A stretch of 64,000 nt of DNA. Origin: Jatrophihabitans sp. GTDB taxonomy: Bacteria > Actinomycetota > Actinomycetes > Mycobacteriales > Jatrophihabitantaceae. The stretch is from positions 1,228 through 65,227 of the forward strand of contig JAICIE010000004.1 in NCBI GenBank assembly GCA_025924515.1. Reading direction: 5' to 3'. The notes under the pieces are model-generated. The model was not told where the DNA came from. It searched no databases and worked only from the letters and a program-made list of their open reading frames with translations. Each line of letters opens with the position of its first letter. Positions within the stretch are counted from its first letter, which is position 1. Shown piece after piece: positions 855 through 58,311 of this stretch. The translations under genes were made by a program, and so were the position numbers.

Positions 855-1961
855 TCAGGCCAGGTCGACGACGGCGGCCACCGGGCCGCCACCGTCCGGG
901 CCCTGATGCGCGGCCGACACGGAGACGAAGACCGCGGGATCCCCGGTGACGGCAGCGGCGACGCCGCCGACGCAAGCCTTGATCTGCCGGTGCCAGTGGA
1001 CGTCGGAGTCGTCGAGCATGGCGTTGCGCCGGCCCCGCACCTCTCCGTCCTGGCTGGCCTCGCACTTGATGAAGACGTTGACCAGCCGCCCGGCGAGATC
1101 GCTTGGGTGGGGGCGGTCGGGCAGCGGAAGGCCCGCGTCGCGGATCGCCGCCCAGATCCCGTCCTGGTCGAGCGCGTCCTTCATGACGCCGTGCCCGATG
1201 CGGTAGCGGCCGCCGATACCCCGGGCGTTGCCGACGACGACGACCTGCGCCCGGTCGAGTTCGACGCCCGACGAGCAGGACGCGACCGACGAGTAGAGCT
1301 CGCGGTTGCGCAGCACGTCCTCGTCGCCGGGCATTTCGATCTCTCCGAGCGCCACCGCGATGCCCAGCGCGGTTCCGCCGTTCGAGACGTCCATCGACGT
1401 GAGCGTGTCCTCGGTGAAGACGGTCTTCCCGCGCCGCTTGGCGTCACGGATGGTGTCGATCGTCAGCAGCGGCGTCTTGGTCTGGACGTAATGCACGTCC
1501 GCCGGGTCGGTGATCCCGGCTCGCTCCATCGCGATCTTCACCGCATCGGCGACCTTGGTGATCATGGTTGTGCGGCCGATGTCCTCGGGCAGCAGCACGT
1601 CGCTCATGGCGAACCCCACGGTGAGGCGCGGCTCGTCGCTCGGCACCGCCTGGTCGGCGGGCACGGTCGCGAACACCGTCGCGTGCGGGCTGATGACTCC
1701 GTCCGTGCCGCCCGACCACACGATCGGGATCTGCTTGATGTCCTCTTCGCTCCTCGTCCCCTTGGCGAGGAGAACCTCGCGGAACGCCCGGTCGGCGATG
1801 ATCCGGGTGTAGTCGTTGACGCCGCCGTTGCCCTCGGTCTTGCCGATCACGGCGACGACCCGATCCGCGTCGATCACCCCCTCGTCGAGGAGCTTCGCCA
1901 GTTCGCTGGCGTCGGAGACGGAGTGCAGCGGCAGCTTGCGCACCTCGATCGGCTCAGGCAC
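855..1961 (-). CDS. Ring-opening amidohydrolase of the AtzD/TrzD cyanuric acid hydrolase / barbiturase family
   Basis: ORF 855..2069 trimmed to GTG 1961, which is preceded by GGAGG. Family-typical motifs: [60 protein letters not shown]. About 368 aa, as expected for the family. Confidence 0.85.
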
Positions 1962-1993
1962 TGAAAACCTCCGGAATCTCGGACGATCAATGG

Positions 1994-2923
1994 TCAGGAC
2001 GCCACGCGGGTGCCGACGCGGCCGGCGAGGGCGGCGGCGATCTGGTCGAGCGACGTGATCGCCGCCCACCGCCCGCTCGCGGCGACGCGACAGGCCGCCT
2101 CGACTTTCGGGCCCATGCTGCCCTCGGCGAACTCGCCGCTGTCGGCCAGCGCGCGAAGCTCCGCGGCGGAAACCTCGCCGAGCGGGCGCGCGGCCGCGCT
2201 ACCCCATCCCACGACCGCGGCGTCGACGTCCGTGGCGATCACCAAACCGTCCGCGTCGAGGGCCTCGGTCAAGAGCGCAGCCGTGAGGTCCTTGTCGATG
2301 ACTGCCTCGACGCCGTAGAGAGAGCCGTCGTCGTGGCGCACCACCGGAACGCCGCCACCGCCCGCGCACACCACCACGTATCCCGCGTCGACAAGGGTCC
2401 GTGCGGCCGCCGCGTCGAGGCACTGCCGGGGCTCGGGAGACGCGACGACCCGGCGCCAGCCACGCTCGCCGCGGTCCTGCCACACCTGCCCGTGCTGGAT
2501 CATCACCCGCGCCTCCTCGGCGGTGAGATACCGCCCGATCGGTTTGGAGGGTGCGGCGAAGTGCGGATCGTCGCGGTCGACGAGCGTGCGGCTGACCAGG
2601 GCCGCGGTGCGTTTGCCGACACCGCGCCGGGCGAGTGCCGCGTCGAGCGCGTCGAGAACCAGCACGCCGATCGTCCCCTGCGTCTGGGCGCCGCACCAGT
2701 CCAAGGGCACCGGCGGGACGACCCCGGCCGCGAGCTCGTTCTTGACCAGGAGGTTGCCGACCTGCGGTCCGTTGCCGTGGGTCAGGACGACCTCGGTGCC
2801 CGCGGCCACAAGATCGGCGACCGTCTCCATCGCGGCCGTGATGGCCCGCTGCTGGTCGTCCGGGCGCGCAGTGCCGTCGGGGGCGGTCATCGCGTTTCCG
2901 CCGAGCGCGATCACGACCCGCAC
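1994..2923 (-). CDS. arcC: Carbamate kinase
   Basis: [12 protein letters not shown]...[15 protein letters not shown]...[10 protein letters not shown]...VIDKD; full-length 309 aa. Starts 3 nt after the upstream gene's stop. Confidence 0.9.
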
Positions 2924-2926
2924 CGC

Positions 2927-4090
2927 TCAGCCGTCCTCGTCGAGCCAGGCCCGGATGGCCGCTCCGTGCTGGTCGAGGGTGGGCGGCGCGAGGTTCTCCT
3001 CCCGCGCGCCGCCGTACCCCGCGTCGTCCAGCCGCAGGGGTGGGCCAGGCAGGCTGATCCGCCCGAGCGCGGGGTGCGCGACGTCGATCAGGAGTCCTTG
3101 TGATCGCGTCTGGTCCCACTCGTAGACCTCGGCCAGGTTGCGTACCTTTCCGGCCGGGACGCCGAGATCGGCCAGGCGCTGCAGCAGATCAAGGCTCGGG
3201 TAACGGCTGAACGCCTCGTTCACGGCAGCGATCACCGCATCGCGGTCACGGACCCGCTGCGGATTGGTCGCCCACTCCTCGCGGTCGAGTCCGAACGGTG
3301 ACGCGAACCTGCGCCACAGGCCGTCGCTGCCCACCGAGATCTGCACCGGGCCGTCGGCCGCCGAGAACAGTCCGTACGGGCAGATCGACGGATGGTGCCC
3401 GCCCGTCGCCTGCGGGACCTCGCCGGCGACCGTGTACCGGGTGCCCTGGAAGGCGTGCACCCCCACGATCGCGGCGAGCAGGCTGGTGCGCACGACCCGG
3501 CCGCGTCCGGTGCGTGCGCGCTCGTGCAGCGCCGCAACCGCACCGTACGCGCCGTACATCCCGGCGAGCAGGTCGGCGATGGGCACGCCGACACGCGTGG
3601 GCTGCTCCTGCGACGGTCCGGTCAGCGACATCAACCCGCCTTCGCCCTGGGCGATCTGGTCGTATCCGGCGCGTCCGCCCTCCGGCCCGTCGTGCCCGAA
3701 GCCGCTGATCGACAGGATGACAAGGCCGGGATTCAGCCCATGCAGCCGGCGGACGCCGAAGCCGAGCCGGTCCAGCACCCCGGGACGGAAGTTTTCGACC
3801 AGGACGTCAGCCTTCCTGATCAGCCGGGCCAAAACGTCACGACCCTCTTCGCTCTTGAGGTCGAGTGCGATCGATTCCTTGTTGCGGTTGCAGGACAGGA
3901 AGTAGGTCGAGTGCTCGTTCCCGTCGCTGCCCGGCACGAACGGCGGCCCCCACCCGCGGGTGTCGTCGCCCCCGTCCGGCGACTCGACCTTGATGACGCG
4001 GGCGCCCAGGTCGCCCAGCATCATGGCGGCGTGCGGGCCGGCGAGCGCGCGCGACAGGTCCACCACCAGGACGTCCTCGAGCAGGCTCAC
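2927..4090 (-). CDS. Type III (CaiB/BaiF/Frc family) CoA-transferase
   Basis: ORF 2927..4297 trimmed to GTG 4090 (VSLLEDVLVVDLSRALAGPHAAMMLGDLGARVIKVESP...VLVENFRPGVLDRLGFG). The GTGA start overlaps the hyuB-like stop. Confidence 0.85.
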   Translation of the reverse strand: MSLLEDVLVVDLSRALAGPHAAMMLGDLGARVIKVESPDGGDDTRGWGPPFVPGSDGNEHSTYFLSCNRNKESIALDLKSEEGRDVLARLIRKADVLVENFRPGVLDRLGFGVRRLHGLNPGLVILSISGFGHDGPEGGRAGYDQIAQGEGGLMSLTGPSQEQPTRVGVPIADLLAGMYGAYGAVAALHERARTGRGRVVRTSLLAAIVGVHAFQGTRYTVAGEVPQATGGHHPSICPYGLFSAADGPVQISVGSDGLWRRFASPFGLDREEWATNPQRVRDRDAVIAAVNEAFSRYPSLDLLQRLADLGVPAGKVRNLAEVYEWDQTRSQGLLIDVAHPALGRISLPGPPLRLDDAGYGGAREENLAPPTLDQHGAAIRAWLDEDG

Positions 4091-5943
4091 CGGTAGTCGA
4101 CCTCCGCGGCAGGGCGGCCGCCGGAGAGCCGGGCGTACCCCGGTCCGCGGTCGAAGAATGCCTCGCCGCCGCGCGCCGCACGCATCTCGCGCCGCAACTG
4201 CTCGGTGGCCGGCAGGTGCACGCCCGGGTCGTCGTCGGGTCCGTCGACCACGACCCCGTACTCGTCCCGGGCCGCCGCTCGCGACACCTTGCGCCACAGG
4301 ACGTCCCGGGCCACCAGGGCTGGATCCCGCTCGAGCGGGTCGCCCCAGCCGCCCCCGCCGGTCGTCCGGATGCGGATGGTGGTGCCCGCCGGGACGAACT
4401 CGGCGTCGACCAGAGCGGCGACGTCGCGCTCGGTCGGGCCGCCGGGATCGACAGTGACTTGGAACGGGCGGCCGGCCCGTCCGCCCTTGACGCCCCAGCA
4501 GGACAAGATGGAGCGGTCGGCGATGGACATGAAGTGCGCGTCGCGGAGCATGCGCAGATGCTTCTCGTAGCCGAGACCGCCGCGGAACCTGCCTGCGCCG
4601 CCGGAATCGACCGCGAGACCGAGCCGCTCGACGACGAACGGAAACCGCGCCTCGGTGAACTCCGTCGGCAGGTTCCGCGAGTCGGGCACGACGTGGATGG
4701 TGTCCTCGCCGTCGGCGTAATGACGGCCGCCGGATCCGCCGCCGAGGACCTCGCGCATCAGGTACGGCGCACCGGAGCGGTCGGTGCCGTAGACGCCGGT
4801 GTAGCGGATCGTCTCCTGATCGGCGGGCATACGCCCGTCCACGGCTTTGGCCAGCACTCCGGCCAGCACACCGAGCAGGCGGAGGATCACGAACGTCCTC
4901 GCGTTGGTGGGCGCCGGGAACACCGGGGTGAGCAGGGTTCCCGGCGGTGGGAAACGCATCTCGATCAGCGCTACCACGCCCTCATTCACGTCCAACTCGG
5001 CCATCCGCTCGGGGGAGTCCGCGAGGTTGCGGAGGATCGGCGCGAGCCACTTCTTGAGGAAGTTGCCGTCGGCGTAGTCGCCGCAGTGGTTGATCGGACC
5101 CTTGGCCTGCGGGGAGGTCCCGGCGAAGTCGAGAACGATGTTGTCCGCCGTGCGCGTCAGCGTGATCCGCTGCCGGTGCAGCATCGGCGGGTCGACCCCG
5201 TCGTGCTCGGCGTAGTCCTCCCACGTCCACGTCCCTTCCGGGATCTTGGCCAGGATCTCGCGGCGGAATGTCTCGGTGGTGTTGGCGACGATTGCGTCGA
5301 AGGAGGACTCGATCGTGTCCCGTCCGTACCGGTCGAACAGTTCGGCCAGCCGGCGCGAGCCCATCAGGCAGGCCGAACACTCGGCGTCGAGATCGGCGGC
5401 CAGCGAGTCCGGCATGCGGGAATTGCGCGTCATGATGGCGAGCGCGGCGCGGTTCGGCACCCCGCGATCCCACAACTTGATCGGCGGGACCATCAGTCCT
5501 TCCTCGAAGACGCTGCGCGCAGAGCTGGGCATGGAGCCCGGGACCGAGCCGCCGATGTCGTCGTGATGCCCGAAAGCCTGCACGAAGGCGACCACCTCAC
5601 CGCCGTGGAACACCGGCACGGTCACGCACAGGTCCGGAAGGTGGCCGATCCCGCCCTCGGAGAGGTAGACGTCGTTGTGGAAGAACACATCGCCGGGGCG
5701 CATCGTGTCGATCGGGAAGTCGCGGGCGACGGGGTGCACCAGAGCGCTGTACGACCGCCCGGTCAGCTTGCGCAGAATGCGGTCGTGTATCCCGGCCCGA
5801 TAATCGTGCGCATCCCTGATCATCGGCGAGCGGGACGTGCGTCCGATGGCGGTCTCGACCTCCTTCTCTATCGACGCGAGGCTGCCCTGCACGATCTCGA
5901 GGACGACCGGATCGACCGCCGAGTTGCCGGTGAGGGTCTTCAT
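4087..5943 (-). CDS. Hydantoinase B / oxoprolinase family protein (HyuB-like)
   Basis: ORF 4087..6129 trimmed to ATG 5943 (MKTLTGNSAVDPVVLEIVQGSLASIEKEVETAIGRTSRSPMIRDAHDYRAGI...). ATGA overlap with the hyuA-like stop. Confidence 0.85.
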   Translation of the reverse strand: MKTLTGNSAVDPVVLEIVQGSLASIEKEVETAIGRTSRSPMIRDAHDYRAGIHDRILRKLTGRSYSALVHPVARDFPIDTMRPGDVFFHNDVYLSEGGIGHLPDLCVTVPVFHGGEVVAFVQAFGHHDDIGGSVPGSMPSSARSVFEEGLMVPPIKLWDRGVPNRAALAIMTRNSRMPDSLAADLDAECSACLMGSRRLAELFDRYGRDTIESSFDAIVANTTETFRREILAKIPEGTWTWEDYAEHDGVDPPMLHRQRITLTRTADNIVLDFAGTSPQAKGPINHCGDYADGNFLKKWLAPILRNLADSPERMAELDVNEGVVALIEMRFPPPGTLLTPVFPAPTNARTFVILRLLGVLAGVLAKAVDGRMPADQETIRYTGVYGTDRSGAPYLMREVLGGGSGGRHYADGEDTIHVVPDSRNLPTEFTEARFPFVVERLGLAVDSGGAGRFRGGLGYEKHLRMLRDAHFMSIADRSILSCWGVKGGRAGRPFQVTVDPGGPTERDVAALVDAEFVPAGTTIRIRTTGGGGWGDPLERDPALVARDVLWRKVSRAAARDEYGVVVDGPDDDPGVHLPATEQLRREMRAARGGEAFFDRGPGYARLSGGRPAAEVDYR

Positions 5944-8042
5944 CGCGCCGCCCGTGCGGTTATGATCAGGCTTCCGTACTTGTCGACACGGGCGGTGAAC
6001 CCCGGGTGCAGCGGGACGGTCGAGCCGTATTCCTCGATGACGGCAGGCCCGTGGACGACCGCGCCCGCCGACAGGTCGCCGCGCCGGAAGAGAGGCGTCA
6101 CTTGGTAGCCGCCCGCGGGATCGAAGCACACGGACCGCGCACCGGTCGGCAGGTCGGTGCCGCCACCGGCGAGCGGGCGCAGCTCAGGACGGCTGATCGG
6201 TCCCACGCCGGTCACGCGGAGGTTCACCCATTCGACCTGCTGTCTGGCGTCGTCGCGGAAGTCGTATCCGTAGAGGGCGCGGTGCGCGTCGTGGAACGCG
6301 GCGGCGACGAGCTGCGGGTAAAGCTCGCCGTCCGCAACCGGCACCCGCACCTCGAACGCCTGGCCGAAGTAGCGCAGGTCGGCCGACCGCAGGAAGCGCT
6401 GCTCCTCGGGGTGGAAGCCCTCGACCGCCAGCGCGTCGGCGGCGTCGCGCTGCAGGTCGGCGAACACGTCCTCGACCGCCGCCGGATCGAGATCGGCGTG
6501 CCGCGATACGGCCGTCCGCACGTAGTCGTTCTTGACATCGACGGTCAGCAGGCCGAACGCGCTGACGTTGCCGGGGTTCGGCGGCACGAGGACGGAGTGC
6601 AGACCGAGAATGTCGACCAATCGGCACAGCAGCAGCGGTCCCGACCCACCGAACGTGACCAAGGTGAAGTCGCGGACGTCCAGCCCGCGCTTCACGGTCG
6701 TCTGTCGGAGCGCGTTCGCCTGGTTCCACGCCGAGATCTCCAGGATGCCCGCCGCGCAGGCTGCGGTGTCGAGTCCGAGCCGGCCGGCGAGCTGTTCGAT
6801 GCCGTCTTCCGCGGCCGCGAACTCGAGCGGGACTTCACCGCCGAGAAGGGACGGCGGAATCCGCCCCATGACGAGGTGGGCGTCGGTAACGGTCACGTCC
6901 CGGCCGCCGCGCGAATAGCACAGCGGGCCCGGGTCGGCTCCTGCGGATGCGGGGCCGACCTTCAGGGTTCCTTCCGGTGACAACCAGGCGATCGAGCCGC
7001 CTCCGGCGCCGACGGTGACCACGTCGAGCATCGGAATCTTCGACGGGTAGCTGCCGATCGACCCCTCGGTGGTGAGCGTCGGCTCGCCGTCGAGAACGAC
7101 GGCCACGTCGGTGGAGGTGCCGCCGCCGTCGCAGGTCAGCACCCGGTCGAACCCGGCGGTACGGGCGATGAGGGCAGCGCCGAGCGCTCCGGCGGCAGGT
7201 CCGCTGAGGACCGTCGTGATCGGTTGGTGCACGACCTCGTCGGCCGACAGCACGCCGCCGTTCGACTTCATGACGTAGAACGGGAGCGGTCGGTCGCTCA
7301 ACTGCTCGAGCCGCGAGCTGATCGATCGGACGTAGCGGGCCACCCGCGGCTTGACCGCCGCGTCGACGAGCGTGGTCATCGACCGTTCGTATTCGCGGTA
7401 TTCCCGCAACACCTCGCTGGAGATCGAGACGACGGCGTCCGGGTGCTCACGCGCCAACACGTCCTGCATGCGGCGCTCGTGGTGCGGGTTGGCGTAGGAG
7501 TGCAGGAAGCAGACGCCGAGGGTATTCACCCCCCGGGCCCGGAACCACCGGGCGACCGCGACCGCGCCGTCCTCGTCGAACGGCCGGATCTCGGCGCCGG
7601 TGAAGTCCAGCCGTCCGCCGACCGTCTTCACCAGGTGGGCGGGAACGATGCGGTCGGGCTTCACCCAGAAATACGAGTTCCCGTAACCGTCCGGCACCGA
7701 TTGCCGCGCGATCTCCAGAATGAACTCATACCCCTCGGTGGTGATGAATCCGAGCGTGCCCAGCTTGCCCTCGAGCAGCTGGTTCGTCGCCACCGTCGTG
7801 CCGTGGCTCACCGAGTGGAGCTGGTCGCCGGCCGCGCCCAGCTGCTCCAGGATCTTCGTCAGACCGGCGAGGAAGGCATCGGCCGGATCTTCCGGCGTGG
7901 ACGGAGTCTTGGTGCTGGTGAGCAGGCCGGTCGACTCGTCGAAGGCAACCACGTCGGTGAACGTGCCGCCGGTGTCGATGCCGATCCGCAGCCGCCCGGT
8001 GGCGGTCGCCGGCCGACTGTCCGGCCTCGTCACGGGTGGCAT
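5940..8042 (-). CDS. Hydantoinase A / oxoprolinase family protein (HyuA-like, ASKHA ATPase fold)
   Basis: RIGIDTGGTFTDVVAF N-terminal motif and a later CDGGGTSTDV motif; 700 aa. Confidence 0.85.
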   Translation of the reverse strand: MPPVTRPDSRPATATGRLRIGIDTGGTFTDVVAFDESTGLLTSTKTPSTPEDPADAFLAGLTKILEQLGAAGDQLHSVSHGTTVATNQLLEGKLGTLGFITTEGYEFILEIARQSVPDGYGNSYFWVKPDRIVPAHLVKTVGGRLDFTGAEIRPFDEDGAVAVARWFRARGVNTLGVCFLHSYANPHHERRMQDVLAREHPDAVVSISSEVLREYREYERSMTTLVDAAVKPRVARYVRSISSRLEQLSDRPLPFYVMKSNGGVLSADEVVHQPITTVLSGPAAGALGAALIARTAGFDRVLTCDGGGTSTDVAVVLDGEPTLTTEGSIGSYPSKIPMLDVVTVGAGGGSIAWLSPEGTLKVGPASAGADPGPLCYSRGGRDVTVTDAHLVMGRIPPSLLGGEVPLEFAAAEDGIEQLAGRLGLDTAACAAGILEISAWNQANALRQTTVKRGLDVRDFTLVTFGGSGPLLLCRLVDILGLHSVLVPPNPGNVSAFGLLTVDVKNDYVRTAVSRHADLDPAAVEDVFADLQRDAADALAVEGFHPEEQRFLRSADLRYFGQAFEVRVPVADGELYPQLVAAAFHDAHRALYGYDFRDDARQQVEWVNLRVTGVGPISRPELRPLAGGGTDLPTGARSVCFDPAGGYQVTPLFRRGDLSAGAVVHGPAVIEEYGSTVPLHPGFTARVDKYGSLIITARAAR

Positions 8043-8662
8043 CAGCAGCGCCTGCCGATGCGTCCCACCGCGGTCCCGACGAGCACGCCGGCCAGCGCGA
8101 CCACTGCACCGACGAGCACGCCGCGGAGAAAGGTGTCCTGGCCGGCGGCAACCGGGGCGGGCGCCGAGAAGACACCGGCGGGCGGTGCCGGCGCCGCGGC
8201 CGTCTCGGCCGGTACCGCCTCCTTGCCGGATAGGACGTCGTCGACCGCGGCGAAGAACTCTGCGGCCATCCGCCTGCCGACCGCGGCGAGCATCCGCTGT
8301 CCGACGCCGGCGACCATGCCGCCGACGACGGCGTCGGCGTCATACCGCACGAGGGTCTGCGAGTCGCCGGCCGGATCGAGAAGGACGCGGACGTCGGTGC
8401 GAACGGTGCCCGGCGCGCCCGCTCCCGAGGCCGTCATGACGAACGAGTGCGGTTCCTTCTTGTCCGACAGCGCCACCTCGCCGGTGTACGTGCCCTTGAC
8501 CGCCGCAACGCCCGCGGTGACGGTCATGGAATAGGCATCCGCTCCCGTCGTCTCGAGCCGTTCGCAGCCGGGGATGGTCCGCACCAAGACCGCCGGGTCG
8601 TTCAACGCCCGCCAGACCCGGTCGACCGGCGCGTGCAGGGTCGCCTCACCGCTGACCTTCAT
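8042..8662 (-). CDS. CoxG-like SRPBCC protein with C-terminal membrane anchor
   Basis: MKVSGEATLHAPVDRVWRALNDPAVLVRTIPGCERLE... (CoxG/SRPBCC). Hydrophobic C-terminal segment FLRGVLVGAVVALAGVLVGTAVG. ATGA overlap with the large-subunit stop. Confidence 0.8.
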   Translation of the reverse strand: MKVSGEATLHAPVDRVWRALNDPAVLVRTIPGCERLETTGADAYSMTVTAGVAAVKGTYTGEVALSDKKEPHSFVMTASGAGAPGTVRTDVRVLLDPAGDSQTLVRYDADAVVGGMVAGVGQRMLAAVGRRMAAEFFAAVDDVLSGKEAVPAETAAAPAPPAGVFSAPAPVAAGQDTFLRGVLVGAVVALAGVLVGTAVGRIGRRC

Positions 8663-11037: not shown

Positions 11038-11510
11038 CGCGCCAACTCGGCGGCGCGCAGCACGGCGCGCACGATGTTCTGATAGCCGGTGCAGCGGCAG
11101 AGGTTCCCGCCGATCATGTCCCGCGCCTGCTGCTCGTCGGGATCGGGGTTGTCGCGCAGCCCCGCGGTCACGGTCGTCAGGAATCCTGGGGTACAGAAGC
11201 CGCACTGCAGGCCGTGGCAGTCGCGGAAAGCCTGCTGGACGGCAGACAGCGCGCCGTCGGGCTCGGCGAGGCCTTCGACGGTGGTGATGTCGTTGCCCTC
11301 GACCGACACCGCCAACAGCAGGCAGGACCGCATCGGGAGCCCGTCGACCAGGACCGTGCACGCCCCGCACACCCCGTGTTCGCAACCGACGTGGGTGCCG
11401 GTCAGCCGCAGGTCGTGGCGCAGGCAGTCGCTGAGCAGCCGCCGGGCGGGGATGGACAACGGGCGGGGCACGCCGTTCACGGTCAGCACCACGTCGATCA
11501 GTTCGCTCAT
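11034..11510 (-). CDS. [2Fe-2S]-binding small subunit (CoxS-like) of the hydroxylase
   Basis: ORF 11034..11786 trimmed to ATG 11510. Cys clusters: GCEHGVCGACTV and CGFCTPGF...CRCTGY. 158 aa. ATGA overlaps on both sides. Confidence 0.9.
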   Translation of the reverse strand: MSELIDVVLTVNGVPRPLSIPARRLLSDCLRHDLRLTGTHVGCEHGVCGACTVLVDGLPMRSCLLLAVSVEGNDITTVEGLAEPDGALSAVQQAFRDCHGLQCGFCTPGFLTTVTAGLRDNPDPDEQQARDMIGGNLCRCTGYQNIVRAVLRAAELAR

Positions 11511-12370
11511 GCAGCCGCCGCCCCCGAGGCCCTGGCCGCCGCGAGAGCCTGCGTGAGCGCCCGCTCGGTGAGCACTCCGGCCAGAGCGCGTCGATAGTCG
11601 GCGCTTGCGTGCAGGTCCGCCTCCGGCTGCACCTGCGCCCGCGCCGCCTCGCCGGCGGCGCGCGGGTCTGCGGCCTGGTCGGTCAGTTCGAGAACGAGCG
11701 GGGTCGGGGCGACGGAGAGGTAGGCGCAGCGCGCGGCCGCCACCGCGCCGTCGTCCTTCAGTCGGACGAAAGCGGCCACGCCGCAAACCGCGTAGTCCCC
11801 GGCACGGCGTGACACCTCGACGAACGCGGTACCGCTGGAAGGCGGGAGAACCGGCAGCGCCGCCTCCACCGCAAGCTCGTCATCGCGAACGTCCGACTCC
11901 AGCGGGCCGAGGAAGAGCTCCCCGGCGGTCACGTTGCGTTCGCCTCGCGAGGACCGGACGCGCAGGCTGCCGCCGAGCAGCGCCAGCACCGCGGTCATCT
12001 CGCCCGCGGGGTCGGCGTGGACGATGCTGCCGACCGTGGTGCCGCGATTCCGGATCGTCGCGTGGGCCACCAGGCGCAACGCCTGCCGCAGCAGCGGCTG
12101 CGCCGCGCCGGCGGCCGGGTCGGCCAGCACGCGGGCGTGCCGGGCCAACGCGCCGATCCGCACGACGTCGCCGTCGACGCGCACGTAGTCGAGCTCGCGC
12201 AGCCGGTTGATGTCGACCAGCGCGGACGGATGCGCCAACCGCATGGACACGAGCGGGATGAGGGACTGGCCGCCCGCGAGAACTTTCGCCCCGCTGCCCA
12301 GCGTCCCGAGCACCTCGACCGCGCTGTCGACCTGCTCGGGACGCCGGTAGTCGAACGGGGCCGGCTTCAC
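11507..12370 (-). CDS. FAD-binding medium subunit (CoxM-like) of the hydroxylase
   Basis: MKPAPFDYRRPEQVDSAVEVL...AKVLAGGQSLIPLVSMRL; 287 aa. The GTGA start overlaps the permease stop. Confidence 0.85.
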   Translation of the reverse strand: MKPAPFDYRRPEQVDSAVEVLGTLGSGAKVLAGGQSLIPLVSMRLAHPSALVDINRLRELDYVRVDGDVVRIGALARHARVLADPAAGAAQPLLRQALRLVAHATIRNRGTTVGSIVHADPAGEMTAVLALLGGSLRVRSSRGERNVTAGELFLGPLESDVRDDELAVEAALPVLPPSSGTAFVEVSRRAGDYAVCGVAAFVRLKDDGAVAAARCAYLSVAPTPLVLELTDQAADPRAAGEAARAQVQPEADLHASADYRRALAGVLTERALTQALAAARASGAAAA

Positions 12371-13860
12371 AGGCGTCTCGTCGTCTCTGGGGGCGTCGTC
12401 TCGGCGAACGGCGACACCTCGCCGTCGGGGGTCTCGACGTTACCGGTCGAGAGCATCGTGCCGCCCTCGTACGCGCGGCCACGGATCTGCGGTTCCCGTA
12501 GCTCCGGCGGGGCAAGCCAACGCATCGCGTGATAGGCGATAAGGACGACGATCGTGCCGAGGGCGATGCCGCCGATGGAGAAGTTGTCCGTGAACTTCAA
12601 GGTCACGCCGCCGATGCCTGCGATGATCCCGGCCGCCAGCGGCACGAGGTTCACCGGGTTGGCGAAGTCGACGCGGTTCTCCACCCAGATCTTCACACCG
12701 AGCAGCCCGATCATCCCGTAGAGGATCACAGTGATGCCGCCGAGTACGCCGCCCGGAGTGCCGTCGACGATGGCGCCGAACTTCGGGCAGAACCCGAGCA
12801 GGATGGCGACGAGCGCGGCAACGTAGTAGGCCGCCGTCGAGTAGATGCGGGTGGCCGCCATGACCCCGATGTTCTCGGCGTAGGTGGTAGTCGGGGATCC
12901 GCCCACGACCGATGCGATCACCGTGCCCACGCCGTCGCCGATGAATGCCCGGCCGAGGGAGGGGTTGAGGTCCTCCCCGGTCATCTCGGAGACCGCTTTC
13001 ACGTGGCCGGCATTCTCCGCCAGCAGCGCGATGACGCTGGGCAGCACCAGCAGGATGAATGCGCCGGAGAAGCTTGGCAGGTGCCAGCCCACGACGGCGT
13101 CCTTGCCGGCATGGGAAAAGGTCGATCGGGCAGGGAAGCCGATCCAGTCCGCCGCTCGGACGCCCGACCAGTTCACCCGGTCGTGCAGCACCGGTTTCGG
13201 CCCGGTGGGCAGCACCGAGTTGATCTTCCCGAAGATGTGGTCGAACGCCCACGAGATCAGGTAGCCGAAGAGAAGTCCCAGGAAGATGGCGATCCGTGAC
13301 CAGAAGCCGCGGAACAGCACCGCTGCGCAGATGACGAACGCCATCGTGAGCAGCGCTACCCACTGGTCCTGCGGCCAATAGGTGTTGGCAACGACCGGCG
13401 CGAGGTTGAAACCGATCAGCAGCACCACGGCGCCGGTGACGGCTGGCGGCAGAACCTTCTGGACAATCTCGCCCCCGAGGAAATGCACGACGACGCCGAC
13501 AACTGCGAGGACCAGACCGGCAATGAGGATGGCGCCGGTGACGTCCTTCGAGTTGCCGCCCTGAGCCCGGATGGCGGTCACCGCCGCGACGAACGACGCC
13601 GATGTGCCGAGATAGGACGGGATCCTGCCGTTGACGATCAGCAGGAAGAGGATCGTCGCCACCCCGGACATCATCACCGCGAGGTTGGGGTTGAGGCCCA
13701 TGATGACCGGGAACACGAACGTCGCGCCGAACATGGCGACGACGTGCTGGGCGCCCAGGCCGATCGTCTTTCCCCAGGACAACCGTTCGCCCGGACCGAC
13801 GACCTCTCCCGGTGGGGGCGTCCTGCCTCCGTACACCAACCTCCAGCCGAATGCCGACAT
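12367..13860 (-). CDS. NCS2-family nucleobase:cation symporter (uracil/xanthine permease-like)
   Basis: ORF 12367..13956 trimmed to ATG 13860. GLGAQHVVAMFGATFVFPVIMG and ENIGVMAATRIYS motifs, with multiple TM segments. Confidence 0.85.
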   Translation of the reverse strand: MSAFGWRLVYGGRTPPPGEVVGPGERLSWGKTIGLGAQHVVAMFGATFVFPVIMGLNPNLAVMMSGVATILFLLIVNGRIPSYLGTSASFVAAVTAIRAQGGNSKDVTGAILIAGLVLAVVGVVVHFLGGEIVQKVLPPAVTGAVVLLIGFNLAPVVANTYWPQDQWVALLTMAFVICAAVLFRGFWSRIAIFLGLLFGYLISWAFDHIFGKINSVLPTGPKPVLHDRVNWSGVRAADWIGFPARSTFSHAGKDAVVGWHLPSFSGAFILLVLPSVIALLAENAGHVKAVSEMTGEDLNPSLGRAFIGDGVGTVIASVVGGSPTTTYAENIGVMAATRIYSTAAYYVAALVAILLGFCPKFGAIVDGTPGGVLGGITVILYGMIGLLGVKIWVENRVDFANPVNLVPLAAGIIAGIGGVTLKFTDNFSIGGIALGTIVVLIAYHAMRWLAPPELREPQIRGRAYEGGTMLSTGNVETPDGEVSPFAETTPPETTRRL

Positions 13861-14002
13861 CGTCTGCCGCTCCCTTCGCCGCGAGGACGGGCCGTGCCCG
13901 TCAGCGCAGGAGTGTCCGCCGCGCGCGGGATAGAGAACGGTAGGACCGCCGATCAAGCGGGTTCATTGTGGAGTTTTGACGAAGGACCGCCGCGTCCTTC
14001 GG

Positions 14003-15697
14003 TCACAAACCGCGCATTTGCAGCACCCGGAGCGCGAGAGCGATGTCCAGGCGCAGGTCGGGGTTCGTCATGAACTGCCCGACGATCGACTCGAGTTTGC
14101 CGATGCGGTAGCGCAGCGTGTTGTAGTGGAAGTGCAGGATCCGGGCCGTCTCGGCGACATTGCAGTTCGTGTCGATCAGCACCTGCAGCGTGCGCCGGAG
14201 ATCGGTCGACTCAGGCCGATCGGTCCCGAGCGACCCGAGCACCTCGGCGGCGAACGAGCGCAGCTCCTCGCTGTCGGTGACCAGGGACAGCAGCCGATGG
14301 ACGCCGAGGCTGTCGAAGTGCGCGATGGCTCCGCGCCCACGCGTCCGCCGGCCCACGACGAGCGCTTTGCGGGCCTGGTCGTACGCGGCCGGCAGGCCGT
14401 CCGGTGATCGGACGACCCGGCTGACTCCGGCGGAGAAGGAACGCCGGCCGCCGCCGCGATCTCCGGTCACCGCGGCGACAAGCTCTGCCACCGTGGCCTG
14501 GGCGGCCGCCTCGGTGGCAGGAACCACCGCCACGATCTCCTGGCTGATCCCCACCACCGGAACAGCCCGGTCGCGGGCCGCGACCACCTGCTGCCACGCC
14601 GAGGTGAGCCGATCGTGGGGCGTGCGTCCGGTGAGCGGAGAGCCGTCGTCGAGATCGTCGAGTTGCGCGACCAGGACGACCAGAGGCCGGCGGATGTCCC
14701 AACCAAGCGCCGCGCAGTGGGCGGCGACCTGGTCGGGGGGTCCGGCCGTCTCGGTGAGCGCGTCGCGCAGGAAGTCGCCGCGGAACTTCGACTCGACGGC
14801 GGCGACGGCCAACTCCTTGGTGATCGCCAGCGCCGCGACGGTGCCGGCGCGGTCAAGTGACTGCACGGCGGCCGTGCCGAGTCCGCCGACGGGGGCGTAG
14901 GCGACGATGCGGCCGTGCTCGGTGCGTCCGGCGCCGATGTCCACGACGAGCAACTGTCCGTCGGCGCCCGGGATCGACTGCACCCCCGGCCGGACGCGCT
15001 CCACCAAGAACCGCCCGGAGGGGTCGAACAACTGCAGGGCGTCGAACGCCGCCAGGTCGTCGGAGGCACCCGCGGTCGCCCTGACCCGCCCGTCCGGGGT
15101 ACAGACGAGGACGGCCGCGGCGAGCGCCCGGGCGACCTCGTCGGCGATCTGCGGCAGCCCACCACCGTCGAGCACGACCGTCGTGAGGGCGCGGTGCAGC
15201 CGGTCGGCGGCGTCGAGCGCGACCGCCTGCCGGTCGGCGAGCGCGGTGAAAACCTCGCTCATGACCTCGCCGAAGCCGACGTCGGCCGGAAGGCAGAGCA
15301 CCGGGAAGCCGAGCTCGTCGGCCGCGGCGAGCATGGCGAACGGGAGCGTGTCGAGATAGCGGCCCGGTTTCACGCCGAGCGCGGCAACCCCGCGGGCCAC
15401 GAGGGCCCGGACGAACCCGACCAGATCGTCCTCGTCGAAGGGGCGTCCGGTGTCCGGATGGCGCAGCAGGTAACCGGCAACCAGCAGCAACTCGTCCGGC
15501 TCGACCTCCGGCAGCTCGTCCGGAACCTCGATGAGGTTCACCCGAGAGATCGATCCGTCGAGCCCGGCCCGGCCCGCGGCGACCTCCGCGCTCCGCATGC
15601 TCGGCAGCCCGACGAGGTCGCGAACGGTGATGCGGTATTCCCCCGACGCTGGCAAGTCCTGACGGCGCGCGCGGCGAGCGTTGGCAACACCTTCCAT
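14003..15697 (-). CDS. PucR/CdaR-family transcriptional regulator (purine catabolism regulator-like)
   Basis: ORF 14003..16048. The N-terminal 117 codons are Arg/Pro-rich junk, so I trimmed to ATG 15697 (MEGVANARR...ITVRDLVGLPSM...). C-terminal PucR HTH: CNVAETARILHFHYNTLRYRIGKLE. The exact start is uncertain. Confidence 0.75.
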   Translation of the reverse strand: MEGVANARRARRQDLPASGEYRITVRDLVGLPSMRSAEVAAGRAGLDGSISRVNLIEVPDELPEVEPDELLLVAGYLLRHPDTGRPFDEDDLVGFVRALVARGVAALGVKPGRYLDTLPFAMLAAADELGFPVLCLPADVGFGEVMSEVFTALADRQAVALDAADRLHRALTTVVLDGGGLPQIADEVARALAAAVLVCTPDGRVRATAGASDDLAAFDALQLFDPSGRFLVERVRPGVQSIPGADGQLLVVDIGAGRTEHGRIVAYAPVGGLGTAAVQSLDRAGTVAALAITKELAVAAVESKFRGDFLRDALTETAGPPDQVAAHCAALGWDIRRPLVVLVAQLDDLDDGSPLTGRTPHDRLTSAWQQVVAARDRAVPVVGISQEIVAVVPATEAAAQATVAELVAAVTGDRGGGRRSFSAGVSRVVRSPDGLPAAYDQARKALVVGRRTRGRGAIAHFDSLGVHRLLSLVTDSEELRSFAAEVLGSLGTDRPESTDLRRTLQVLIDTNCNVAETARILHFHYNTLRYRIGKLESIVGQFMTNPDLRLDIALALRVLQMRGL

Positions 15698-15735
15698 GCG
15701 AGGACGGTACGCGGGATCGGGTACGGTCCGGGATC

Positions 15736-16455
15736 GTGGAGCTGGACGCGTCCTGCAGCGTCCTCGCCGCCCCGCTTCTCGACGGTCCGGTGCGGCAACT
15801 GCCCGTGCTCGGCGCTGGGCCCGCGGCGCTGTATCTCGACGCCGGCGCCAGCGTGGTGGCCGTCCTCTCGGATCACGCGGTGCAACTCCCCCGTTCGGTG
15901 CGCGTCGCGACCGCCTCGCTGACCGGACTCCGGCCGGACGCGTCGGTGCGCGTCGGCGACGGCGCACTCTCCTGGCTCTCGGGGGGCCGAGCGGTCCGGG
16001 TGCGGGTGGTGCGGCGCTGGTTGCCCGGGCGCGTGCCCTCGGTGGCACCCCGGGGCGAGCGGGTGCGCGAACTGACGGCGGCCGTGGCCGTTCCCGCGGT
16101 CGAGGTCGCCGAGCTACTCGGGCGCGGCCCGGGGCTGACGCCGAGCGGTGACGACGTCCTGGCCGGACACCTGCTCGGCTGCCGAGCGTTCGGGATCGCC
16201 GGCGAGCCGCTGCGCCGCTCGGTCCTCGCGCTGGCCACCACCCGCACGACGGCGTTGTCCGCGGACCTGCTGCGGCTGGCGGCTGAGGGCTGGTGCATTC
16301 CCCAAGCCGCCGCGATCATCGCGGCACTCGGCCGGGAGCGTCCGGATCCGACGGCCCTGCAGGCGTTGATCGGCGTCGGGTCGTCCTCGGGCTCCGCCCT
16401 GGCCGCGGGGATAGCTGCCGCTGCCGCGCAGGTCGTTCTGGGCGCGGCCGCATGA
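15736..16455 (+). CDS. DUF2877 protein (E. coli YlbF/AllH-like)
   Basis: 239 aa with the family-typical GRGPGLTPSGDDVLAG motif. ATGA overlap with the fdrA-like start. Confidence 0.7.
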   Translation: MELDASCSVLAAPLLDGPVRQLPVLGAGPAALYLDAGASVVAVLSDHAVQLPRSVRVATASLTGLRPDASVRVGDGALSWLSGGRAVRVRVVRRWLPGRVPSVAPRGERVRELTAAVAVPAVEVAELLGRGPGLTPSGDDVLAGHLLGCRAFGIAGEPLRRSVLALATTRTTALSADLLRLAAEGWCIPQAAAIIAALGRERPDPTALQALIGVGSSSGSALAAGIAAAAAQVVLGAAA

Positions 16456-17939
16456 GCGCGGCCGGCGGTCCGGACGTCGAGTACGTCGAGGCGCGCCGCG
16501 GCGCCTACGCGGACTCGGTCACTCTGCTGCAGGTGACCCGGCGGGTGGCGGACACCCCCGGAGTGCGCGGCGCGCTGGTGGCCATGGCAACCGACCTCAA
16601 CCTCGACCTGGCGCGCGGGATGGGTTTCTCCGTTCCGGAGTCCGCGGGACCCAACGACCTTCTCATCGCGGTTCGAGCGGAGGACGAGGCGGCGCTGGCA
16701 GCGGCGAAGGACGCGGTACTCGCGGCGCTCACCGCGCCCGCCGGCGCGACGGCGGCCCCGACGGATGTCCCGCCCGCGACGACGGCATCCGCGCTGCGCC
16801 GCGAACCGGCCGACCTCGTCCTGGTGTCGGTCCCGGGCCCCTCCGCGTTCGCGGAAGCGGCCGACGCACTCGACGCCGGCTGCGACGTCATGATCTTCAG
16901 CGACAACGTCCCGGTGGAACAGGAGGTCGCGCTCAAGCGCCGTGCGCTGTCCGAGGGACGGCTGGTCATGGGTCCGGACTGCGGCACCGCGGTCGTCGGC
17001 GGGATCGGCCTGGGTTTCGCCAACGCGGTCGGCCCGGGCCCGGTGGGGCTGGTGGCCGCGTCCGGAACGGGCGCTCAGCAACTGATGTCCCTGCTCGACG
17101 AGGCGGGCGTCGGGATCAGCGCGTGTCTCGGCGTCGGCGGACGCGACCTCTCCGCGGCGGTCGGCGGGTTGGCGACGGTGTCCGCCCTCGATCTCCTCGA
17201 CGCCGACCCGGCCACCGAGCTGGTCGTGGTGGTGTCGAAGCCGCCGGCGCAAGAGGTCGCCGACCGGGTGCGCGAGCATGCGGACCGGTTGCGGACGCCG
17301 GTCGTCCTGGGGTTGCTCGGCGAGGGGCAGCCCGACCTCACCGCGCTCGCCGCGTCGGTGCTGCAGCGCCTCGATCGGCCCGCGCCGGAGTGGCCGCGGT
17401 GGACGCCGCGGTCGGTCGCTGACCCGCGCCCGGGCTCGCTGCGCGGCCTCTACTCCGGGGGCACGCTCTGTGACGAGGCGATGCTGCTGGCCGCCGGGTC
17501 GCTCGGCCGCGTCCTCTCGAACATCCCGCTGCGTCCCGACTGGCGGTTGGACCGCACCCTGCGTTCGCCAGGTAACCTGATGATCGACTTCGGAGACGAC
17601 GACCTCACCCGGGGGCGCCCGCACCCGATGATCGACGGGTCCCTGCGCGCCGAGCGCCTCCTGGCCGAGGCCGACGACCCCACCGCGGCGGTGGCTCTAC
17701 TGGACGTCGTCCTGGGGTACGGCGCCGCCGCCGATCCGGCCGCCGACGTGGCCGCTGCGATCGCGAAGGCATGCGCGGCCGGGCTTCGGGTGCTCGTTGC
17801 GCTGGTCGGCACGGCCGGCGATCCGCAGAACCGGGAGGAGCAGGCCGGGCGGCTCGTCGACGCGGGGGCGGAGGTTTTCGCGTCGAACGCGCAGGCTGCC
17901 CGCGCGGCCGTCAGCCTCGTCGCGGGAGCCCGGGAATGA
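16452..17939 (+). CDS. FdrA-family protein (acyl-CoA synthetase/succinyl-CoA synthetase-alpha-like; E. coli FdrA/AllF-like)
   Basis: ORF 16293..17939 trimmed to ATG 16452. Strong resemblance to FdrA as I recall it: DSVTLLQV, VMIFSDNVPVEQEVALK, LVMGPDCGTAV, ASGTGAQQL, GVGGRDLS, VSKPP, GRPHPMID. Confidence 0.8.
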   Translation: MSAAGGPDVEYVEARRGAYADSVTLLQVTRRVADTPGVRGALVAMATDLNLDLARGMGFSVPESAGPNDLLIAVRAEDEAALAAAKDAVLAALTAPAGATAAPTDVPPATTASALRREPADLVLVSVPGPSAFAEAADALDAGCDVMIFSDNVPVEQEVALKRRALSEGRLVMGPDCGTAVVGGIGLGFANAVGPGPVGLVAASGTGAQQLMSLLDEAGVGISACLGVGGRDLSAAVGGLATVSALDLLDADPATELVVVVSKPPAQEVADRVREHADRLRTPVVLGLLGEGQPDLTALAASVLQRLDRPAPEWPRWTPRSVADPRPGSLRGLYSGGTLCDEAMLLAAGSLGRVLSNIPLRPDWRLDRTLRSPGNLMIDFGDDDLTRGRPHPMIDGSLRAERLLAEADDPTAAVALLDVVLGYGAAADPAADVAAAIAKACAAGLRVLVALVGTAGDPQNREEQAGRLVDAGAEVFASNAQAARAAVSLVAGARE

Positions 17940-19336
17940 GTTTGCTGGCCGGCGATCCTCGCGTGTTGAGCGTGGGTGCGGAGCTGTTCGCCGACTCGGT
18001 GCGGGCGCAGGCGGTGACCGTCCGGACTGTCGACTGGCGTCCGCCGATGGCGGGGTCGGAGAACGACCTCGCCCGCGTGCTGGCCGACCCCCGGCGCAGC
18101 GCCGCGAACAGCACGGCCGTGGATCGGATGCTGGCGGTGTCGGCGCGGCTGGTCGACGTCGTGCCGGCCGGCGATCTGCTGGGGCTCGGGCCCTCCGACT
18201 ACCTGCACGCCGGCCCGCCGATCGACTGGGACCGGGCATCGGGACCGCTTCGCGGCGCGCTGATCGGGGCGGCGCTGTTCGAGGGTGTGGCAGCGAGCCC
18301 CGACGACGCCGAGCGGGTGCTGGCCGCGGGCTCGTCGATCAGCCTGGCGCCGTGCCACTCGCGCTCGGCTGTGGGACCGATGGCCGGGGTCGTCTCGCGC
18401 TCGATGTGGATGTTCGTGATCGAGGACGAGGCCACGGGGCGCCGCACCTACTGCTCGCTCAACGAGGGGCTGGGGAAGGTGCTGCGCTACGGCGCGTACG
18501 GGCCCGAGGTGCTCGACCGGTTGCGCTGGATGTCAGCCGTGTTGGGGCCACTGCTGCAGACCGCGCTCCGGGCACGCGGGCCGGTCGACGTCACCGCCCT
18601 TCTCGCGCAGATGGTGCAGATGGGAGATGAGGCGCACAACCGCAACCGCGCAGGAACCCTGATGTTCCTGCGTGAGCTCCTCCCGGCGCTGATCGGCAGC
18701 GGCGCCCCGGCGGGCGACGTGGCCGAGGCGGTCCGGTTCGTCGCGGGCAACGACCACTTCTTCCTCAACCTCGCCATGCCGGCATGCAAACTGGCCCTCG
18801 ACGCTGCACGGGATGTGCCGGGGTCGTCGATGGTCGTGGCCATGGCGCGCAACGGCACCGACTTCGGGATCCAGGTGTCCGGAACCGGCGATCGGTGGTT
18901 TACCGGCCCCGCCCAGGTGCCGGACGGGCTGTTCCTCGGCAACTACGGCCCCGCAGACGCCAACCCGGACATCGGTGATTCAGCGATCACCGAGACGGCG
19001 GGGCTGGGCGGGTTCGCCATGGCGGCGGCGCCCGCGATCGTCCGGTTCGTCGGGGGCGCGGTCGCCGACGCGCTCGCCACCACGTCACGGATGTACGAGA
19101 TCACGCTGGCCGAGCACCCGACGTTCAGCATTCCTGTGTTGGAGTTCCGGGGGACGCCGTGCGGGATCGACGTGACGAAGGTCGTCCGCACCGGGATCCT
19201 GCCGCAGATCAACACCGGAATGGCCGGGCGGGCTGCCGGCACCGGTCAGGTCGGGGCGGGACTGGTCACGCCGCCCGGCTCGGTGTTCGCGGACGCGCTG
19301 CGGGCCTTGGCAGCGGCCGCGCCCGCGGTCTGCTGA
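17936..19336 (+). CDS. DUF1116 protein (E. coli YlbE/AllG-like)
   Basis: ORF 17771..19336 trimmed to ATG 17936 (ATGA overlap with the fdrA-like stop). Assigned from size, position after FdrA and overall similarity as recalled. No single diagnostic motif was verified. Confidence 0.6.
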   Translation: MSLLAGDPRVLSVGAELFADSVRAQAVTVRTVDWRPPMAGSENDLARVLADPRRSAANSTAVDRMLAVSARLVDVVPAGDLLGLGPSDYLHAGPPIDWDRASGPLRGALIGAALFEGVAASPDDAERVLAAGSSISLAPCHSRSAVGPMAGVVSRSMWMFVIEDEATGRRTYCSLNEGLGKVLRYGAYGPEVLDRLRWMSAVLGPLLQTALRARGPVDVTALLAQMVQMGDEAHNRNRAGTLMFLRELLPALIGSGAPAGDVAEAVRFVAGNDHFFLNLAMPACKLALDAARDVPGSSMVVAMARNGTDFGIQVSGTGDRWFTGPAQVPDGLFLGNYGPADANPDIGDSAITETAGLGGFAMAAAPAIVRFVGGAVADALATTSRMYEITLAEHPTFSIPVLEFRGTPCGIDVTKVVRTGILPQINTGMAGRAAGTGQVGAGLVTPPGSVFADALRALAAAAPAVC

Positions 19337-21619: not shown

Positions 21620-21732
21620 GGACGGTTCGGAGCCTACACGCAGGCCATGACCGGGCGGCGCCGCGGGAAGGGGTTGGCGTTGACGCTGCCAACCCGTGCG
21701 GTGGAGACTTGAGCCCTCGGAAGGAGCCGCGG

Positions 21733-22335: not shown

Positions 22336-22339
22336 CACG

Positions 22340-58301: not shown

Positions 58302-58311
58302 GAAAGATCTC

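Follow-up and report, generated by a model that had tools for sequence, protein, structure and literature searches.

The DNA considered here is a 64,000-nucleotide stretch of a Jatrophihabitans sp. contig (GenBank assembly GCA_025924515.1, contig JAICIE010000004.1, positions 1,228 to 65,227), referred to as the window, with a G+C content of about 70%. Fourteen genes between positions 855 and 19336 (Table 1) make up a cluster in which a putative barbiturase, a molybdenum hydroxylase, a carbamate kinase and a three-subunit complex resembling AllFGH of Escherichia coli occur together, and which may encode oxidative pyrimidine catabolism with a carbamoyl-phosphate branch. Assignment with Pfam and NCBIfam profiles agrees, for every gene, with the coordinates and families listed in a preliminary description of this DNA.

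Table 1. Genes of the cluster, in order of position in the window, with the profile matches on which their assignment rests.
Gene or product	Position	Strand	Profile matches and remarks
bar, barbiturase (AtzD/TrzD ring-opening amidohydrolase family)	855..1961	-	PF09663 full length, E 6e-148; closes the operon; GTG start
Carbamate kinase (arcC/allK-like)	1994..2923	-	PF00696; NCBIfam NF009007, 284 bits (cut-off 266)
Family III CoA-transferase, dicarboxylate type	2927..4090	-	PF02515, E 2e-113
HyuB, beta subunit, ATP-dependent hydantoinase/oxoprolinase type	4087..5943	-	PF02538, E 5e-139
HyuA, alpha subunit of the HyuAB enzyme	5940..8042	-	PF05378, PF01968, PF19278
CoxG-like SRPBCC protein	8042..8662	-	PF06240, E 1e-23
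CoxL, molybdopterin subunit, XDH/CoxL-family hydroxylase	8659..11037	-	PF01315, PF02738, PF20256
CoxS-type 2x[2Fe-2S] subunit	11034..11510	-	PF01799, PF00111
CoxM-type FAD subunit	11507..12370	-	PF00941, PF03450
NCS2 nucleobase permease, pyrimidine-like	12367..13860	-	PF00860; first gene of the structural operon
PucR-family regulator	14003..15697	-	PF07905, PF17853, PF13556; position kept in most loci
AllH-like subunit (DUF2877)	15736..16455	+	PF11392, E 4e-22
AllF/FdrA-like subunit (succinyl-CoA-synthetase-alpha-like)	16452..17939	+	PF00549
AllG-like subunit (DUF1116)	17936..19336	+	PF06545, E 2e-96

Ten of these genes form one minus-strand string running from 13860 down to 855, in the order NCS2 permease, CoxM, CoxS, CoxL, CoxG, HyuA, HyuB, CoA-transferase, ArcC (carbamate kinase) and Bar (barbiturase). 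Start codons and junctions read from the sequence place seven of its nine junctions in ATGA, GTGA or TGATG overlaps, among them ATGA at HyuA/HyuB and at either side of CoxS. Gaps of 3 nt and 32 nt separate CoA-transferase from ArcC and ArcC from Bar, respectively, the latter with GGAGG ahead of the Bar start. Both the AllH/AllF and the AllF/AllG junctions are again ATGA overlaps, and most of the 14 genes are translationally coupled. The PucR gene lies upstream of the operon and in the same direction, while allH-allF-allG diverge about 38 bp past its start. The called divergent starts of PucR and allH are some 36-38 bp apart in the window (15697-15736) and likewise in a related locus (L170, 5299-5335), which would imply overlapping or leaderless divergent promoters, or else miscalled starts. 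A terminator scan detected no terminator-like site at any gene junction of the cluster. Scanning the intergenic regions for promoters, terminators and repeats was unproductive: the single promoter-like site lay outside the cluster, and no convincing PucR operator repeat emerged from the repeat scan. Induction is probably exerted through PucR.

The interpretation turns on the last gene of the operon. PF09663 covers positions 1-358 of 358 in the window protein (493 bits), which also scores 600 bits on TIGR02714. Its match to the crystallised barbiturase PDB 5HWE (E 9e-204, 679 bits) far exceeds that to the best cyanuric acid hydrolase (1e-98, at most 334 bits), and the two barbiturase-type proteins are 84% identical over 365 residues with 0 gaps; Rhodococcus qingshengii carries a copy of 5HWE with 99% identity. 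The earlier suggestion of a barbiturase-like AtzD member is thus borne out, and on this comparison we regard the protein as an orthologue of the Rhodococcus barbiturase and a member of the barbiturase subgroup. In the alignment, SNGGTALG of both the window Bar and 5HWE stands opposite SRGASALG of the cyanuric acid hydrolase 5T13. An active-site arginine conserved in cyanuric acid hydrolases (Arg188) is lost in the barbiturase subgroup, where Gln has been reported (PMC4051656); the arginine of the 5T13 motif could be, but need not be, this residue. Barbiturase acts on barbiturate, and cyanuric acid, which it does not hydrolyse, inhibits it (PMC3758960; PMC4051656). Given this specificity and the orthology of the window protein, barbiturate is almost certainly a pathway intermediate. 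The cyanuric acid pathway of atzD/trzD resembles the window in having a ring-opening amidohydrolase of the same fold and family (PF09663) but differs in subgroup, and atzE, atzF, atzG, atzH and biuH are not present here.

The window Bar passes the NCBIfam equivalog NF052395, 'cyanuric acid amidohydrolase' (477 bits, cut-off 360), and homologues more than 85% identical to it (P0002-P0221) are named variously cyanuric acid amidohydrolase, barbiturase or ring-opening amidohydrolase. Earlier descriptions call the enzyme rare, yet at least 4321 clusters (90% identity) match barbiturase at E <= 1e-150, and barbiturase clusters at about 85% identity number thousands in soil metagenomes.

A comparable discrepancy between label and evidence attends the hydroxylase. 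The active-site loop of CoxL, read in translation, is YRGAGR (T-P-Y-R-G-A-G-R-P), where form I CO dehydrogenases (CODHs) have AYRCSFR, the cysteine of which ligates copper. Its nearest solved relatives are 7DQX (463 bits) and 1T3Q (436 bits), the closest structures being 6-hydroxypseudooxynicotine dehydrogenase and quinoline 2-oxidoreductase; CODHs rank lower (8UEM, 402 bits; 1N5W, 365 bits). On the NCBIfam exception model NF040766 (CODH_aero_grp5, 'aerobic CO dehydrogenase large subunit') CoxL scores 1507 bits, and public records label its orthologues (P0222-P0341) 'aerobic carbon-monoxide dehydrogenase large subunit'. In view of the loop, the N-heterocycle hydroxylases among the nearest structures and the context of pyrimidine catabolism, we doubt this label, which is probably a systematic misannotation. 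Linkage to barbiturase, the type of permease and the Rhodococcus precedent suggest that CoxM/S/L is a uracil/thymine dehydrogenase. CoxG, which carries a hydrophobic C-terminal tail with the stretch VLVGAVVALAGVLVGTAVG, probably anchors or assists the hydroxylase. The permease scores best on RutG (343 bits), followed by UraA (271 bits) and PbuX (155 bits), every one under its equivalog cut-off. This RutG-like permease (343 bits against a cut-off of 759) is all that the window shares with the Rut pathway, Pfam scans having detected none of the RutA-F families.

The divergent operon encodes three subunits of the same Pfam families as E. coli AllFGH (PF00549, PF06545 and PF11392), here in overlapping genes. 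Identities to the E. coli subunits are 39% for AllF, 47% for AllG and 32% for AllH, the last over the C-terminal half of E. coli AllH only; AllF scores 386 bits on the NCBIfam FdrA model, under the cut-off of 433, and ArcC is 42% identical to E. coli AllK/YbcF. The E. coli complex, as the preliminary description had correctly stated, converts oxalurate and phosphate to carbamoyl phosphate and oxamate and shares an operon with a carbamate kinase, and its authors state that urease-negative enterics depend on the oxamate transcarbamylase together with this kinase (PMC11326118). The linked carbamate kinase and the predicted ATP-yielding phosphorolysis of an N-acylurea to carbamoyl phosphate are features in common. 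In contrast to E. coli, where allECD abut allF, the window has the order allH-allF-allG among pyrimidine genes, its kinase lies 13 kb off in the other operon beside bar, and the predicted substrate is ureidomalonate rather than oxalurate. Pfam scans of the open reading frames (ORFs) found no allB-, allC-, allD- or allE-type genes in the window.

Modules of AllFGH and carbamate kinase attached to genes for the degradation of non-allantoin ureides have a parallel in nitrifiers: in comammox Nitrospira and ammonia-oxidising archaea, AllFGHK lies beside biuret/triuret genes and has been interpreted as serving oxalurate degradation (PMC12625717). There, however, the partners are BiuH, TrtA and AtzF, the organisms belong to other phyla, and barbiturase and Mo-hydroxylase are missing. 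A single 14-kb ENA contig (P0203) holds a 490-residue ORF call in which the C-terminal ~120 residues of ArcC continue in frame into a full Bar; this could be either a real fusion or the product of a lost stop codon or sequencing error.

The remaining genes of the string are less readily placed. The nearest solved relative of HyuA is the N-methylhydantoinase 7HK5 (E 6e-137), and HyuAB shares the two-subunit domain architecture of N-methylhydantoinases, 5-oxoprolinases and caprolactamases. It differs from them in scoring far under the NCBIfam equivalog cut-offs (caprolactamase, 494 for HyuA and 191 for HyuB against 1000; acetophenone carboxylase, 258 against 1500) and in having no carbamoylase partner in the window. 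HyuAB is possibly a second ring opener, acting on 5-methylbarbiturate from thymine or on another cyclic ureide. It travels with the Mo-hydroxylase in variants with and without AllFGH, those of Rhodococcus, Prescottella and Saccharopolyspora included, and neither reading offered in the preliminary description accounts for it. Relatives carry beside HyuAB a reductase, absent from the window, whose family changes (AKR, SDR or NmrA-like; L005 13449-14486, L013 17672-18526, L076 18770-19477, L009 13910-14782, L085 17529-18362, L084 4901-5851). The C-N hydrolase that often flanks HyuAB in relatives, itself of changing type (amidase, CN-hydrolase or M20), and this changing reductase together suggest a second, hydantoinase/carbamoylase-like ring-opening branch. 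A parallel reductive-like branch of reductase, HyuAB, carbamoylase and aminotransferase was also considered, and was neither supported nor excluded.

The best NCBIfam matches of the CoA-transferase are succinate-glutarate, oxalate and mesaconate CoA-transferases, all under cut-off, and the enzyme is paired with a fused AccD/AccA-like carboxyltransferase in Rhodococcus and in loci L001, L090, L136 and L166; its predicted role is the conversion of malonate to malonyl-CoA. Neither tblastn with the hydrolases of Rhodococcus, L001 and Pedococcus nor Pfam scans of the ORFs found an amidase, CN-hydrolase or M20 gene in the 64-kb window. The NF005686 cut-off of 465 is passed by the amidases from Rhodococcus (716 bits), from L001 (533 bits) and from Nocardioides (477 bits), and the bar-adjacent member of this subfamily in Rhodococcus is a candidate for the ureidomalonase.

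Members of the Rhodococcus erythropolis group provide the most informative comparison. In this group the conversion of uracil to barbiturate, ureidomalonate and finally urea plus malonate has been shown biochemically. Soong and colleagues reportedly described the oxidative pathway of R. erythropolis JCM 3132, comprising uracil/thymine dehydrogenase, barbiturase and ureidomalonase, in 2001 and 2002. Strain JCM3132, in which barbiturase and ureidomalonase were described, is the same as CCM2595 (PMC3961730; PMC3758960). The R. erythropolis-group cluster runs XdhC-PucR-permease-(carboxyltransferase<-CoA-transferase<-)-PucR<-UPRTase<- and, beyond these, Bar-amidase-aminotransferase-permease-CoxM-CoxS-CoxL-CoxG-HyuA-HyuB-NmrA, with neither AllFGH nor ArcC in view. 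CoxM/S/L are 49/67/64% identical to their window counterparts, HyuA/HyuB 66/76% and the CoA-transferase 65%; the window permease is 63% identical to both permeases of the Rhodococcus cluster, and CoxG and PucR are also common to both. As differences, an amidase-signature amidase follows bar directly in Rhodococcus, where the window carries AllHFG and ArcC without any amidase, and the Rhodococcus cluster additionally holds a class III aminotransferase, a UPRTase, an NmrA-like reductase and a carboxyltransferase (L083/L085).

With so much in common, the core of the window cluster corresponds to the known oxidative pyrimidine gene set. The preliminary description had held the combination to be distinct from the published oxidative pyrimidine route, a claim that must be withdrawn for the core (bar, CoxMSL-CoxG, HyuAB, PucR, permease and CoA-transferase). 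What sets the window type apart is the pair of AllFGH and ArcC, such that the ureide-cleavage step alone would differ from Rhodococcus. Related clusters in Prescottella equi (L087) and Saccharopolyspora indica (L168), of the form amidase-(XdhC)-PucR-(permease)-CoxMSL-CoxG-HyuAB-NmrA, likewise lack AllFGH. In both, bar was not seen within 10 kb; should these genomes lack it altogether, ring opening there could fall to HyuAB.

To gauge how widely this arrangement is kept, one genome per species was scanned for CoxL, which returned at least 592 orthologous stretches and shows the cluster to be common. Locus architecture was read by tblastn with all window proteins, and a locus was counted only where 9 kb or more could be seen upstream or downstream, as appropriate. 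The best 80 stretches are 73-85% identical and include Pseudonocardiales, Mycobacteriales, Propionibacteriales, Streptosporangiaceae, Jatrophihabitans, Terrabacter and Pedococcus, as well as Phycicoccus, Intrasporangium, Nocardioides, Embleya and Jiangellaceae; orthologous clusters of the AllFGH type are also found in Angustibacter and Saxibacter. The recurrent architecture is AllG-AllF-AllH <-> PucR-permease-CoxM-CoxS-CoxL-CoxG-(X)-HyuA-HyuB-(Y)-ArcC-Bar. AllF/AllG lie divergently upstream in 52/54 orthologous CoxL loci and HyuA/B downstream, after CoxG, in 51/58, so a chance juxtaposition of these genes can be set aside. Centring instead on barbiturase, we inspected 80 metagenomic loci, 57 of which show the upstream kilobase, and found ArcC directly upstream of bar in 38. 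Co-conservation of the genes extends across actinobacterial orders, a point on which the preliminary description is supported. Linkage of CoxMSL orthologues to bar is seen not only in the window but also in 17 genome loci and the R. erythropolis group. AllFGH and ArcC, although situated at opposite ends of the cluster, are both present in 11 of the 14 loci with both ends visible and both absent from Rhodococcus. The two are gained and lost as a pair.

Variation is concentrated in the two slots. Slot X holds an amidase-signature amidase in 23 loci and a CN-hydrolase in at least 19, and is empty in the window and its nearest relatives; slot Y is occupied by the CoA-transferase, an SDR, an NmrA-like protein or some other gene. 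The count of loci with neither hydrolase (25/67) is an overestimate, a divergent CN-hydrolase in L009 having been missed by tblastn. We considered whether AllFGH/ArcC and the amidase might be mutually exclusive and rejected this, there being 23 AllFGH loci with an NF005686 amidase and at least 19 with a CN-hydrolase. Since AllFGH usually coexists with one or the other in relatives, it is not a simple replacement for a hydrolase. If the Rhodococcus amidase is the ureidomalonase, Nocardioides clusters may hold hydrolytic and phosphorolytic options together; alternatively, the amidase or CN-hydrolase deamidates malonamate or serves the HyuAB product.

The halves of the cluster (All/PucR/permease/Cox and HyuAB/CoA-transferase/ArcC/Bar) can be separated. 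Locus L001 consists of HyuAB-CoA-transferase-carboxyltransferase-ArcC-Bar-amidase-M20 and has neither Cox nor All genes within 10 kb, whereas in L014, L032 and L074 the first half is not followed downstream by HyuAB, ArcC or Bar in the locus; in L069 the first half is accompanied by bar on the opposite strand. In Nocardioides anomalus (L084), a PEP-mutase-family protein, a CDA-type deaminase and a two-component system are encoded between HyuB and ArcC.

These observations can be assembled into a scheme, oxidative pyrimidine catabolism with a carbamoyl-phosphate branch formed by AllHFG and ArcC, that we regard as moderately probable as a whole. Sequence and comparison supply its basis, namely the family assignments, the orthology of barbiturase, the structure of the operon, its synteny and the core shared with Rhodococcus, while context guides the substrates proposed for the hydroxylase and AllFGH and the role proposed for the CoA-transferase. 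Uracil, and probably thymine too, would enter via the NCS2 permease. The CoxM/S/L Mo-Fe/S-flavin enzyme, with membrane-tailed CoxG, would hydroxylate it at C6 to (5-methyl)barbiturate and would represent the long-orphan uracil/thymine dehydrogenase; barbiturase, in keeping with its strong orthology, would open the ring to ureidomalonate. Ureidomalonate, an N-acylurea, is the CH2-homologue of oxalurate, and its phosphorolysis by AllH-AllF-AllG to carbamoyl phosphate and malonamate is the most likely next step, although we put the prospects of this assignment at roughly even. We favour phosphorolysis because of the homology to E. coli AllFGH/AllK, the structural kinship of the two ureides and the lack of another cleavage candidate in the window cluster. 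Carbamate kinase would then turn carbamoyl phosphate and ADP into ATP, NH3 and CO2. The C3 remainder would pass, as malonate, through the family III CoA-transferase, its carbon going on to acetyl-CoA; in relatives, the AccD/AccA-like carboxyltransferase may take part, as may an amidase or CN-hydrolase able to deamidate malonamate. Such a route would be free of urea, in contrast to the urea-forming route of Rhodococcus, an idea that follows from the analogy with AllFGH. The wider proposal, in which AllHFG is a ureidomalonate:phosphate carbamoyltransferase, HyuAB an ATP-driven second ring opener for a barbiturate analogue not accepted by barbiturase, such as 5-methylbarbiturate from thymine, and CoxM/S/L and the NF005686 amidase of Rhodococcus the two orphan enzymes, is advanced more tentatively, as somewhat less likely than not.

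Several observations weigh against the phosphorolytic scheme. E. coli AllFGH, to which the subunits are only 32-47% identical, was assayed with oxamate and carbamoyl phosphate only (PMC11326118). ArcC is not adjacent to bar in 19 of the 57 bar loci, and L009 and L012, which carry AllFGH, lack an ArcC within 22 kb. The scheme has no place for HyuAB or for the recurrent reductases (NmrA, SDR, AKR). Finally, the NF005686 amidase that follows CoxG in 23 AllFGH-bearing relatives, and the CN-hydrolase found there in at least 19 others, imply that a hydrolytic route may coexist with AllFGH, which could then serve another ureide.

This last point leads to the alternative that ureidomalonate is hydrolysed to urea and malonate, as in Rhodococcus, by an amidase encoded elsewhere in the genome, leaving AllFGH and ArcC to process a ureide from the HyuAB branch. 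Such a ureide might, for example, be ureido-methylmalonate, formed when 5-methylbarbiturate is opened at the expense of ATP, or an N-carbamoyl product derived from a different cyclic ureide. In every variant HyuAB is linked to the hydroxylase, its nearest solved relative opens cyclic ureides, an amidase, CN-hydrolase or M20 protein beside it recalls the pairing of hydantoinase with carbamoylase, and amidases of one NCBIfam subfamily coexist with AllFGH. We nevertheless consider this explanation rather unlikely: HyuAB occurs without AllFGH or ArcC in Rhodococcus, Prescottella and Saccharopolyspora and so is independent of both, ArcC adjoins bar (and is in one ORF call fused to it) rather than the partners of HyuAB, and no amidase is encoded in the 64-kb window. 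Somewhat less likely again is an AllHFG that is an oxalurate-specific oxamate carbamoyltransferase of a purine/allantoin pathway encoded elsewhere, placed beside the pyrimidine operon through a shared PucR regulon. The matches to the Pfam AllH and AllG and the FdrA families would suit such an enzyme, purine catabolism is the classical target of PucR regulators, and nitrifier AllFGHK genes lie next to unrelated biuret/triuret genes (PMC12625717). An enzyme borrowed from another pathway is, however, difficult to reconcile with synteny to the hydroxylase in 52/54 loci from several orders and with the joint loss of AllFGH and ArcC from Rhodococcus-type clusters; nor do the absence from the window of allB, allC, allD and allE-type genes, in contrast to E. 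coli with its allFGHK next to allECD, or the modest identity to the E. coli subunits (32-47%) favour oxalurate.

The substrate itself might be other than a pyrimidine. The preliminary description had entertained a two-ring, purine-like compound, and a purine-like, caffeine-like or other N-heterocycle whose different rings are opened by HyuAB and the AtzD-family enzyme would account for the two kinds of ring opener and for the database entries that name the CoxL orthologue caffeine or xanthine dehydrogenase. We think this very unlikely, given the 84% identity to a barbiturase specific for barbiturate (PMC3758960, PMC4051656), a permease closest to pyrimidine transporters (best on RutG and UraA, not PbuX), the UPRTase linked in Rhodococcus, and a core shared with the group in which the route from uracil to barbiturate was shown; scans of the window turned up neither purine nor allantoin genes. 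Taking the automatic annotation literally, as an aerobic CODH beside a cyanuric acid hydrolase, would agree with the scores on NF040766 and NF052395 and with the public names of homologues, which follow these models. This reading is scarcely credible in the light of a YRGAGR loop without the Cu-binding cysteine, N-heterocycle hydroxylases as nearest structures, an AtzD member twice as close to barbiturase as to cyanuric acid hydrolases, and a context of nucleobase catabolism.

Biochemical knowledge of the oxidative pyrimidine pathway goes back to the 1950s. Within the searchable literature, which does not extend to subscription journals, barbiturase is its only step with an assigned gene, and we found no report linking barbiturase, uracil dehydrogenase or ureidomalonase with the present genes, carbamate kinase or AllFGH; Soong 2001 is still the reference given for it in a paper of 2025. 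The first two steps are known; within the literature searched, no description was found of the gene cluster, of gene candidates for the two orphan enzymes or of the carbamoyl-phosphate branch.

The cluster is flanked on one side by a MarR-like gene (357-854) and on the other by an unassigned 203-residue ORF and unrelated genes. A DUF1326 gene followed by a gene for a PpoB2 copper-chaperone-family membrane protein (21709-23167), with an adjoining amino-acid permease gene (23262-24806), is apparently unrelated. At the far end of the window, parA, yidC, dnaA (59617-61149), dnaN and recF (54958-63763) place the catabolic cluster about 40 kb from the chromosomal replication-origin region.

The cluster illustrates what are probably two systematic misannotations, of a hydroxylase as CODH and of a barbiturase as cyanuric acid amidohydrolase; through the first, soil surveys could come to overestimate the number of CO oxidisers. 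It also makes several propositions testable: the genes for uracil/thymine dehydrogenase and ureidomalonase, a further substrate for the AllFGH transcarbamylases, a family recognised only in 2024, and an energy-conserving, urease-independent extraction of nitrogen from pyrimidines. If the proposed scheme is true, AllHFG would represent a second substrate class of this three-subunit family, and the ureido group of uracil and thymine would supply many soil Actinomycetota with substrate-level ATP by a path that bypasses urea and urease.

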